Assembly (NCBI RefSeq): GCF_001447785.1
Contig: NW_015165871.1
Coordinates: 1 to 59,958 of the forward strand
Origin: Gekko japonicus
Taxonomy: Eukaryota
Length of the DNA: 59,958 bases
Reading direction: 5' to 3'
In this document: positions 3,328 through 8,997 of the stretch, piece by piece
How the letters are laid out: each line of letters opens with the position of its first letter
Numbering within the stretch: position 1 is the first letter of the stretch
Notes under the pieces: model-generated
What the model saw: the letters and a program-made list of their open reading frames with translations, nothing else
What the model was told of the DNA's origin: nothing
Database searches by the model: none
Made by a program: the position numbers and the translations under genes

Positions 3328-3452
3328 GAAAGAGTGGCAGAACTGGAGCAGGAGATCTCCGAGGCCAAGGAGGAAATGTCCCGGTACCTGCGGGAGTACC
3401 AGGAGCTGCTGAATGTCAAGATGGCCTTGGACATCGAGATAGCTGCCTACAG
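3328..3452 (+). CDS. IF gene penultimate exon (coil 2B)
   Basis: [42 protein letters not shown]; 125 bp ending AG|GTAAGG, the size and phase of NEFL/NEFM/INA exon 2; acceptor falls in the N gap after a pyrimidine tract. Confidence 0.92.
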
Positions 3453-6400: not shown

Positions 6401-8997
6401 TTTAATTCTTGCTATGCCATCCAACGCCATTTTCTGGGTTTATCTTCTTTTTATTTCCAAGTTACAAAGGTCCCATATATCCATCTGTTCATTTCGCTGC
6501 CTCTTATGATTCTCTAATTTACCGAGGTATTTACAGCCTCCTTGAAAAGAGAATTTTCAATGCCTGTTAGAGATGTTTGCCAATGATTACACAGTTGTTT
6601 TATCTTTCGAGGGAGGTTTCCCTCCCTCTGTCTGCTGAAAATGGATTGCTGCCGTTCATAGATCTGTTTACATGGTCTTTGAAGAGGAAAATTTCCACTG
6701 CTTATATCGGCACTTCATCATCAGTAAGTTTTTCAGTTCAGTCCTTTCTTCTCTCTATGTCCCCTTATAAATTGTGACTTCCATTGTTGTACGGGTGTGT
6801 GTGGGGGATTTGCCTCTCCCCTCACTTCTTTTTTAGGGATAGACTTTGCTTCTCTCCGACCCTTTCAAGGATGCTAACAGTCTTTATAAAAACAAACAAA
6901 CTTTTGCCACTTCACTCTAGCCTTTCCCAGCCAGAAATCCTGCTTCCCACTGACCTTTTCCAACCTGACAGACAATATATCTTTTCAGTCAATATTTTTC
7001 AAGTCCCGAAATGTTTGCTTAGATGCTAATCAGTTCTTAAACCTTCACCAATCTCCATCACAGTCCCTTCAAGCTCTGTTCATCCAGTCATAATTATTAC
7101 TTTCATCTGGGGGGGGGGCATTTACCCCTCCCATGCTTGCCAGGATGAACTTCGCTTCCCTCTAGTGCTTCATTCCACTTTTACTCGCTCTTCTTCCGTC
7201 GATTCATCGATTTTGCCAATTTGCTTACTTGATATTTGATCACCATTTGCTTGGTCGGTGTGTGTGGCTTAAGTCCAGTACTGGAACATAGCAGGGAGGC
7301 CATCGAGGCAAAAGGACGCCTCAACCCCCCAGCAATGAGCTGGGGGGGTGACGAACCTCAGCACCTCCTGATCCAGCGCCCATCCCTCGGGTTCTGGGGG
7401 GATGTGCACAATCACACCCCCTCTCTACCCGCTGGTTTGCATGTCTCCGGGAGCCCCCAGCAAAACCGGAAGTCAGCCATAAACTTTTCTAAGTCTCCAC
7501 ATGGGACATCTTTGGATCTATTGATTACCCAATTGTAGAGACCCTAACCTAGCTAGAGTGCAGTGGGGGTACCTTTAAGAGCAACAAAGGTTTATTCAAG
7601 GGTGTGCAAAGCACACTTTTCCAAATACAGTGGAATGGGAGGTAAGGTTCAAGCTTATAGACAAAGGCTGAGCAGCAAATCAACATGTAACATGATGAAG
7701 ATGTTTTAAGCTATGCAAAAACAGAATTAATTAACAAGCTAAGGTTATAAGGTCAACAGTTGTAAAGCAATAGATCTGTCGAAATAGATCTGAGACTCTC
7801 CATTCACTCTCAGAGCACGGAGGTCACTTAGCAGCATTTTTACTTCCTCTTTCGAGGTGGAAGCAGAGTGCCTGTTGGCCAAATCAATCTAACATTCCTT
7901 GTATAACATTCAGTATTCTAATATACTATTCTGAAAAAGAAATACAATAAAATACAGAGGATGTATAGTCCCTCTATATGAGAATACATATGTGAGGACT
8001 GAATGAGTTAGCATATGTAATGAGGTAAGAAACCAGTATCCTTGTTGAGTCCCGGGGAGGTCTTTGTTCCAAGTGTTGTAATCTCATAATTCAGCACTCA
8101 AACGCTCATACCTTGAATTAACCTTTGTTGGTCTTAAGGTGCCCGACTGGACTCTAAATTTGTTCTGCTGCTTCAGACCAACACGGCTGCCCACCTGGAC
8201 CAAACCTGGCTAATTATGCATTTCCACACCTTCCTCTGGCTGGCAAATACTGCATGGTCTGCCATTGGGTCTCTCTCTCTAATCAGCCAGGATATCAGCG
8301 TGCATCAACAAACATCTAAATTCTTCCATGACTGCAGGGAGAGAACTTGCAAACTCCAACAGTTTCTCAGCCCAACATGGGCTCAGGAAGTGTCTTGCAC
8401 GTTGAACACATTCCAGTCGGGCACCTCTGAGACCAACAAAGTTTTATTCAAGGGCTGAGCTTTCGTGTGCAAGGCCCACTTTTTCAAATACAGTGGAATG
8501 ACGGGTAAGGTTCAAACTTATAGCCAGAGAACGAACAGCAAATCAACATGTAACATGATGTTCAGGATATGCAAAGTGAAAACTAAAGAAGAAGTTAAGG
8601 TTTAGTTTTCACTTTGAATGTTGAGGGAGTGAGGTGGAAGGCAGGGACACCAGAAAGGTGCATGCGGGGGGGGGAGGAGGAGAGCCCCCCCCCCCGTCAG
8701 CCTTTGGCCAGAGGCTGCTTCCCGGCTGGGCCTCTGGTTGTGAGCCACAGAGCAGCCCTTCTGCCGGCCCTCCTCTCCCCCCCCCAGCCCTGCCGCTAAC
8801 AGGACAGGAGGCCACTCTGGCCTGCCTGCAGCAAGGACACGAGGGGGGGGAGGGCGTGGGGGGCGCTATTGGAGTCACGTGGGCTTCAGGGGTACTGGGG
8901 ACTTGACTGCTAAAGTCTCTCTCTCTCTGTTTTCAGGAAACTGCTGGAAGGGGAGGAGATGTGGTGGAGCTCTTCTTCGCAAATGACGCTGAAATGA
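3328..8997 (+). CDS. Type IV intermediate filament gene (neurofilament/alpha-internexin-like), last two coding exons; exon 1 apparently upstream of the window
   Basis: Exons 3328-3452 and 8937-8997 splice to ...[39 protein letters not shown], the IF coil-2B terminal signature. Confidence 0.88.
4460..7500 (-). mobile_element. Degraded L1-like LINE in IF gene intron
   Basis: Long AT-rich block, A-rich on the minus strand, with a GACTTCCGGTTTT motif at ~7481-7495 resembling non-mammalian L1 5' ends; no intact ORF; boundaries approximate. Confidence 0.4.
5215..5657. mobile_element. Non-autonomous hAT-type DNA transposon (MITE)
   Basis: TIRs CAGGGCTGGCTC / GAGCCGGCCCTG and perfect 8-bp TSD GCTGTGAT at 5207-5214 and 5658-5665. 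Confidence 0.9.
7545..8590. mobile_element. Penelope-like element remnants with direct and inverted terminal repeats
   Basis: Direct repeats ~7580-7700 and ~8435-8560; inverted repeat ~8125-8152 vs ~8412-8440; cagaccaacacggctgcccacctg end motif recalled from squamate Penelope-derived repeats. Confidence 0.55.
8937..8997 (+). CDS. IF gene terminal coding exon
   Basis: (TC)n-TGTTTTCAG acceptor then G AAA CTG CTG GAA GGG GAG GAG = (R)KLLEGEE, 12 more residues and TGA. Confidence 0.88.

Follow-up and report, generated by a model that had tools for sequence, protein, structure and literature searches.

An intermediate filament (IF) gene that lies next to DQX1 in the gecko Gekko japonicus raises the question of which filament gene it is, whether it is intact and how it came to its position. 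The preliminary description regarded it as a neurofilament-class gene, possibly a whole-genome-duplication paralog that belongs to the LOXL3/HTRA2 block and was retained in reptiles and lost in mammals. The window, i.e. the whole stretch of 59,958 nucleotides that was analysed, is the entire contig C6161 of the 2.49-Gb Gekko japonicus assembly. Its features, and the exon of the filament gene that is located elsewhere, are:

1 to 3327, forward strand: intron 1 (3' part), with exon 1 sitting on a separate contig
Contig C11421, 9049 to 9489: visible part of exon 1, with a GT donor at 9490 and the 5' part inside an N gap
3328 to 3452, forward strand: exon 2 (125 bp), which encodes the end of coil 2B, starts in phase 0 and ends in phase 2 within YR
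3453 to 8936, forward strand: intron 2, 5,484 bp, GT..AG, with two N gaps inside
5215 to 5657, reverse strand: non-autonomous terminal inverted repeat (TIR) element within intron 2, 443 bp, with an 8-bp target-site duplication
8937 to 8997, forward strand: coding part of exon 3, with the end of the rod, a 12-residue tail and the stop codon
8998 to 10233, forward strand: 3' UTR, continuously covered by one contig of run X1
16388 to 21593, reverse strand: visible exons of DQX1, convergent with the filament gene and named from helicase similarity and gene order, not from a tree
28295 to 30601, reverse strand: visible exons of AUP1, with a weak CUE match, the name being presumed from gene order
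33892 to 35175, forward strand: visible exons of HTRA2, with a trypsin-like domain, the paralog being named from gene order
40176 to 57914, reverse strand: LOXL3, with SRCR and lysyl oxidase exons, the paralog being named from gene order

Structure and splicing of the filament gene

Exons 2 and 3 as well as full-length orthologs match the Pfam Filament domain, i.e. the IF rod (E=5e-14 for exon 2), and the closest relatives found in the protein search are gecko proteins. The GT donor of exon 2 splits the Arg codon of YR, and its acceptor is concealed by a 25-N gap. Exon 3 opens with KLLEGEE after a pyrimidine tract and AG, followed by 12 further residues and a stop codon, and this tail agrees with that of other gecko orthologs. 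Intron 2, which had been proposed to separate YR from KLLEGEE, is indeed skipped in all four runs concerned (by a single contig in X1 and another in X5, runs whose RNA nature is an automatic guess, and by nine and one raw RNA reads in X11 and X12, respectively). The X1 contig that covers the 3' UTR extends ~600 nt past position 10233 into an N gap.

No rod exon is present in bases 1-3330 of the window. Exon 1, the recovery of which the preliminary description had called for, was located with a gecko ortholog as query; its 3' part was recovered on contig C11421, has a G+C content of 78% and 87% identity to Gekko kuhli, and ends at a GT donor. It is joined to exon 2 in three of the four runs examined (X2, one contig; X11, three reads; X13, nine reads), the fourth, X1, containing no such continuation; as for intron 2, these junction read counts are low and come from Gekko RNA runs of coded tissue. 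As the exon-1 reads run on with exon-2 sequence, the start of exon 2 was set at position 3328. Thus, the reads across both junctions show a transcribed gene of three exons, i.e. an intact, spliced type IV IF gene. A truncated gene or a pseudogene was considered as well and is ruled out by the conserved tail length and by the splicing of both introns.

The assignment to type IV had been based on the exon pattern, and the same boundaries are found throughout the type IV genes of this genome: the 125-bp exon and the intron in YR are common to Gekko NEFL, NEFM, INA, nif1 and NEFH, whereas YRKLLEGEE is uninterrupted by an intron in the readable Gekko matches of type III and keratin genes. The filament gene has the large exon 1, the 125-bp coil-2B exon and the intron within YR-K, and in trees rooted on type III its rod falls with the neurofilaments, apart from type III. 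Two vimentin-like copies with stop codons (L053, C16757:684136-685113, and L014), the one on C16757 being intronless, are probably processed pseudogenes.

Relation to NEFL and to zebrafish si:dkey-33c12.3

The Gekko genome contains separate NEFL, NEFM, NEFH, INA and nif1 genes, names that we assigned from sequence and then checked in the trees, so that the filament gene is a sixth gene with the type IV pattern. NEFL and NEFM are arranged in tandem on contig C17312. NEFL has the same two rod intron positions as the filament gene, but it carries a long acidic tail, whereas the three-exon filament gene encodes an almost tailless protein; the acidic or KSP-bearing tail that marks the neurofilament triplet is missing, the 12-residue tail being free of KSP. 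INA and nif1 resemble the filament gene in their type IV introns and low molecular weight, and INA also has three exons. Nevertheless, both are separate Gekko genes with tails of ~80-100 residues, and the XNIF-like nif1, located on contig C12843, has an extra rod intron. On this contig (L123:8281-8766, L113:516-770) nif1 is flanked by an MXD-family gene, ~60 kb away, and in the opposite direction by an aldo-keto reductase gene, and an atlas look-up of the exon neighbouring nif1 gave no match. We take the MXD-family gene to be MXD1-like; should it be MXD1 itself, INA would have nif1 as its partner from the second round.

Rod trees were calculated from 51 rows under a mixture model, 20 of the 71 prepared rows being excluded as partial, chimeric or distant, and from 29 rows, for which approximately unbiased (AU) tests were carried out under LG+G4 only. 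The Gekko protein belongs to a group of 17 rows, here called nif family member 2, that is recovered in 100% of 200 bootstrap trees. Together with a hagfish protein this group is the sister of NEFL (100/99, two models, in the 51-row and 29-row trees). The lamprey NF-L groups with NEFL (97/84; 93/87). Grouping of the hagfish protein with nif family member 2 is supported at 100/99, its branch is long (0.54-0.67), and moving it to NEFL is not rejected (p-AU 0.056). Placement of nif family member 2 with INA (p-AU 0.009) or with NEFM/H (p-AU 0.002) is rejected, placement with nif1 is marginally rejected (p-AU 0.045), and a lizard-specific NEFL duplicate is rejected at 1e-69. Thus, with NEFL itself on C17312 and the filament gene in a sister clade, the gene is not a 1:1 ortholog of NEFL, and the trees, AU tests and separate genes speak against NEFM, NEFH and INA, as the preliminary description had supposed. 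From the type IV partners that it had considered, NEFL stands and INA does not. Identity with XNIF, which it had left possible, is probably to be denied in view of the separate nif1 in the Gekko genome, the set compared containing no Xenopus XNIF sequence. The branches of the squamate and alligator proteins are long and their composition is skewed, and within nif family member 2 the teleosts cluster with diapsids, probably due to composition bias, so that the order within the family is not to be trusted. Four further proteins (P0267, P0280, P0282, P0290), one of them from bamboo shark, form a separate long-tailed clade near NEFM/NEFH and may represent another unnamed neurofilament paralog.

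The filament gene is the Gekko ortholog of zebrafish si:dkey-33c12.3 (NP_001188486), and UniProt lists members of the family either as si:dkey-33c12.3 or under the name 'Neuronal intermediate filament family member 2'. The Gekko protein forms a single clade with the named fish proteins in both trees and shares the short tail; orthologs have ~390-400 residues, and the zebrafish protein has ~390 residues and a tail of 12. By comparison, the Gekko protein is rich in Ala, Arg and Gly, its linker is extended by an insertion of ~7-9 residues, and its tail contains Trp-Trp; squamate orthologs carry this Ala/Gly-rich insertion in the linker between coils 1B and 2 (alignment columns 260-290), together with the Trp-Trp tail and a lower number of Ser/Thr residues in the head. 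Of the 214 retrieved proteins of 340-470 residues, 175 have a tail of 12 residues, and with two exceptions its length lies within 7-14, so that the short tail is ancestral, and KSP is absent from all nine family members checked. Orthologs are found in cartilaginous and ray-finned fishes (chimaera, sharks, rays, bichir, sturgeon, gar, bowfin, teleosts) as well as in lobe-finned fishes and tetrapods (coelacanth, lungfish, caecilians, salamanders, turtles, lizards, alligator). Thus, retention in reptiles is borne out for lizards, turtles and alligator, but nif family member 2 is not reptile-specific. The Callorhinchus record P0113 appears chimeric, combining a NEFL-like head with the rod of nif family member 2.

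In databases, nif family member 2 is behind many records from fish and reptiles that carry the label 'neurofilament light polypeptide', 'alpha-internexin', 'vimentin' or 'GFAP-like'. Zebrafish ngs, considered at first, was set aside by name as the orthologs bear the name si:dkey-33c12.3. The PDB holds no structure from the family, the best match being vimentin. A literature search, with subscription papers and bioRxiv supplements outside its scope, found no description of the gene as a NEFL paralog, and the available parts of PMC8733776 and PMC8725369 contain nothing on it. This is a real paralog that is named in databases and automatically annotated in reptiles and is apparently undescribed in print, although an older survey of fish IF proteins may list it under another name.

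Proposed origin, loss and function

In human, TLX2 is flanked by DQX1, and the order DQX1-AUP1-HTRA2-LOXL3 found in the window follows behind TLX2; the TLX2/LOXL3 block is a published paralogon of the two genome-duplication rounds in vertebrates (2R), and the available part of the source does not mention a filament gene at this locus (Wotton et al. 2008, PMC2446394). The adjacency to DQX1, which the preliminary description had to assume across gaps, is backed by two fused gene models, one of TLX2 with the filament gene in Gekko kuhli and one of exon 2 of the filament gene with DQX1 in Phrynosoma, the latter implying an opposite orientation in this lizard, through inversion or error. Thus, the TLX2/DQX1 neighbourhood is supported independently of the assembly gaps. 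The Gekko assembly yielded no intact TLX2 locus, and genome searches for homeodomain, lysyl oxidase, RAWUL and MRPS26 revealed no paralogon marker on the other filament-gene contigs, as these are too short or exons were overlooked. A reverse transcriptase fragment, presumably CR1-like, is inserted in an intron of DQX1 (17337-18299).

NEFL, we assume, belongs to the Loxl2 block, and in chicken a single chromosome presumably carries the TLX2/LOXL3 genes together with MRPS26, which in human lies at 20p13. According to the available part of PMC2446394, the Loxl2/Dok2 and Loxl3/Dok1 blocks are located on opposite sides of the first duplication; by the gene order of the window and this source, the filament gene has the position of a 2R ohnolog, i.e. 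it lies in a paralogous block. The rod trees place the split between NEFL and nif family member 2 before the jawed vertebrates. Being the sister of NEFL and not of INA, the gene fits the copy that a first-round duplication would leave in the TLX2/LOXL3 block, and its likely origin is the first of the genome duplications in vertebrates. Thus, the proposed descent within the LOXL3/HTRA2 block is supported by position, whereas the first-round date is likely but not proven, given the hagfish-with-NEFL alternative (p-AU 0.056). As trees date duplications but not their mode, one could also imagine that NEFL was copied long ago in a small-scale duplication and that the copy subsequently relocated beside TLX2/DQX1. 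The NEFL/NEFM tandem indicates that the family is capable of local duplication, and in cyprinid fish the only neighbour seen is MRPS26 (consecutive locus tag), i.e. neither TLX2 nor DQX1. However, the gene lies inside the published paralogon partner of the Loxl2 block, the split is older than the jawed vertebrates and perhaps older than the cyclostome split, and MRPS26 is presumably linked to the TLX2/LOXL3 genes in chicken, which makes a relocated duplicate quite unlikely. Origin by the first genome duplication leaves the loss in mammals, including human, to be considered, and this is likely, its basis being the absence of orthologs from the best matches: among the best 120 of 1,709, 3,989 and 732 matches none is named from mammals, birds, frogs or snakes. 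The only row from these groups among the matches listed is a flycatcher vimentin, and the unnamed rows checked there resemble fish, shark or turtle proteins; the divergent alligator ortholog is itself missing from two of the three best-120 lists, and 50% clusters conceal members. For birds, frogs and snakes, absence from these lists may reflect loss. It is highly improbable that the lizard gene is likewise a decaying relic heading for loss, as might be read from the long branches and skewed composition of the squamate and alligator proteins, the G+C-rich exon 1 (78%), a head with 7-9 Ser/Thr residues, down from 15-24, and the lack of a snake ortholog among the matches listed, since open full-length orthologs exist across many lizard families with exon 2 being 85-98% identical, both introns are spliced and the tail length is maintained.

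In zebrafish, si:dkey-33c12.3 is expressed in 40.7% of the primary and 3.9% of the secondary motoneurons (adjusted p 1e-240), and neflb is co-enriched (56.9% vs 16.4%); moreover, si:dkey-33c12.3 marks spinal clusters 3, 8, 18 and 33, being present in 75% of the cells of cluster 33, where neflb reaches 100% (Kelly et al. 2023, PMC10656102, available part). Three other zebrafish atlases do not contain the gene in the supplements searched, and a lateral-line paper has it in the list of detected genes only, without marker evidence. The lizard gene is presumably neuronal as well. NF-L provides the backbone of neurofilaments, the spacing of which is set by long tails (PMC10758125, available part). 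The filament protein retains head and rod and lacks acidic and KSP segments. Like those of NF-L, its normal head and rod would promote the assembly of coiled coils and filaments, and without an acidic or KSP side arm it would add filament mass or partner NF-M/NF-H, without increasing the inter-filament spacing. In large, fast neurons the nearly tailless protein would likely join the neurofilament backbone as an extra subunit. With the same orthology and origin, the protein might instead form filaments of its own or a transient developmental network, resembling nestin, peripherin or internexin, and not enter mature neurofilaments; its intact head and rod and the ability of NF-L, peripherin and internexin to homopolymerise (PMC10758125, available part) would allow this, but we consider it rather unlikely in light of the co-enrichment with neflb in zebrafish primary motoneurons and spinal cluster 33 (PMC10656102, available part).

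Taken together, we assign a probability of about 70% to the joint reading that the gene is the lizard ortholog of si:dkey-33c12.3 and sister of NEFL, that it derives from the first duplication and was lost in mammals, and that its product likely co-assembles into the neurofilament backbone. With it, nif family member 2 enlarges the vertebrate neurofilament set by a partner of NEFL in the Tlx/Lbx paralogon, and as a natural tailless NF-L it would be useful for probing the contribution of the tail to axon calibre. It might also buffer the loss of NEFL in zebrafish, which would be relevant to fish models of NEFL neuropathy. Going further, we speculate that an ancestral additional subunit of vertebrates, a tailless first-duplication twin of NF-L, served the backbone of fast, large-calibre motor axons, that independent losses in mammals, birds, frogs and snakes reduced the mammalian subunit set, and that much of the fish and reptile 'NEFL' annotation is nif family member 2; in combination, this is possible, though doubtful.

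Dispersal of exon 1 by a transposable element

Exon 1, together with the beginning of intron 1, matches 25 further places on other contigs (L055-L082) with 72-93% identity. Retrocopies are ruled out as a source, since the start of intron 1 is kept and exon 2 is missing. Many of the copies are carried by an element with 13-bp inverted repeats: both ends of the element flank 15 of 24 copies examined, one copy has a single end, and the remaining eight, which have none within 1.5 kb, share other flanks. In the 14 complete elements scored (0.7-1.6 kb) the 8-bp duplications are exact in ten, with one mismatch in three and two mismatches in one, and the donor motif of exon 1 is retained in nine. The left end of the element occurs 4,007 times in the genome vs 0 for the control, and the element in intron 2 (5215-5657), a plain copy, has identical termini. 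Thus, TIRs, distinct target-site duplications and a captured genomic fragment, i.e. the features of a Pack-TIR, are combined, and on this sequence evidence exon 1 and the adjoining first part of intron 1 are captured and spread, in at least 14 copies, by a non-autonomous element, which we take to be of hAT type from its 8-bp duplications and short TIRs. Some copies are apparently transcribed, as seen from loose ends of exon-1 reads.

A survey of 100 animal genomes lists four multicopy Pack-TIRs, which likewise have a host exon and intron start between TIRs, distinct duplications and a G+C-rich donor; its frog example has three copies, whereas 14 complete copies were examined for Gekko exon 1 (Tan et al. 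2021, PMC8277862, available part). The captured exon 1 is therefore a high-copy vertebrate example of a Pack-TIR. Decayed TLX2-like homeobox exon fragments are dispersed as well (L091:7850-8312 on C11268, L093:8622-9065 on C6254, and on C4580 and C11834), the copy on C11268 adjoining sequence that resembles the end of the exon-1-carrying element, and the G+C-rich neighbourhood of TLX2 and the filament gene may have been a repeated donor.
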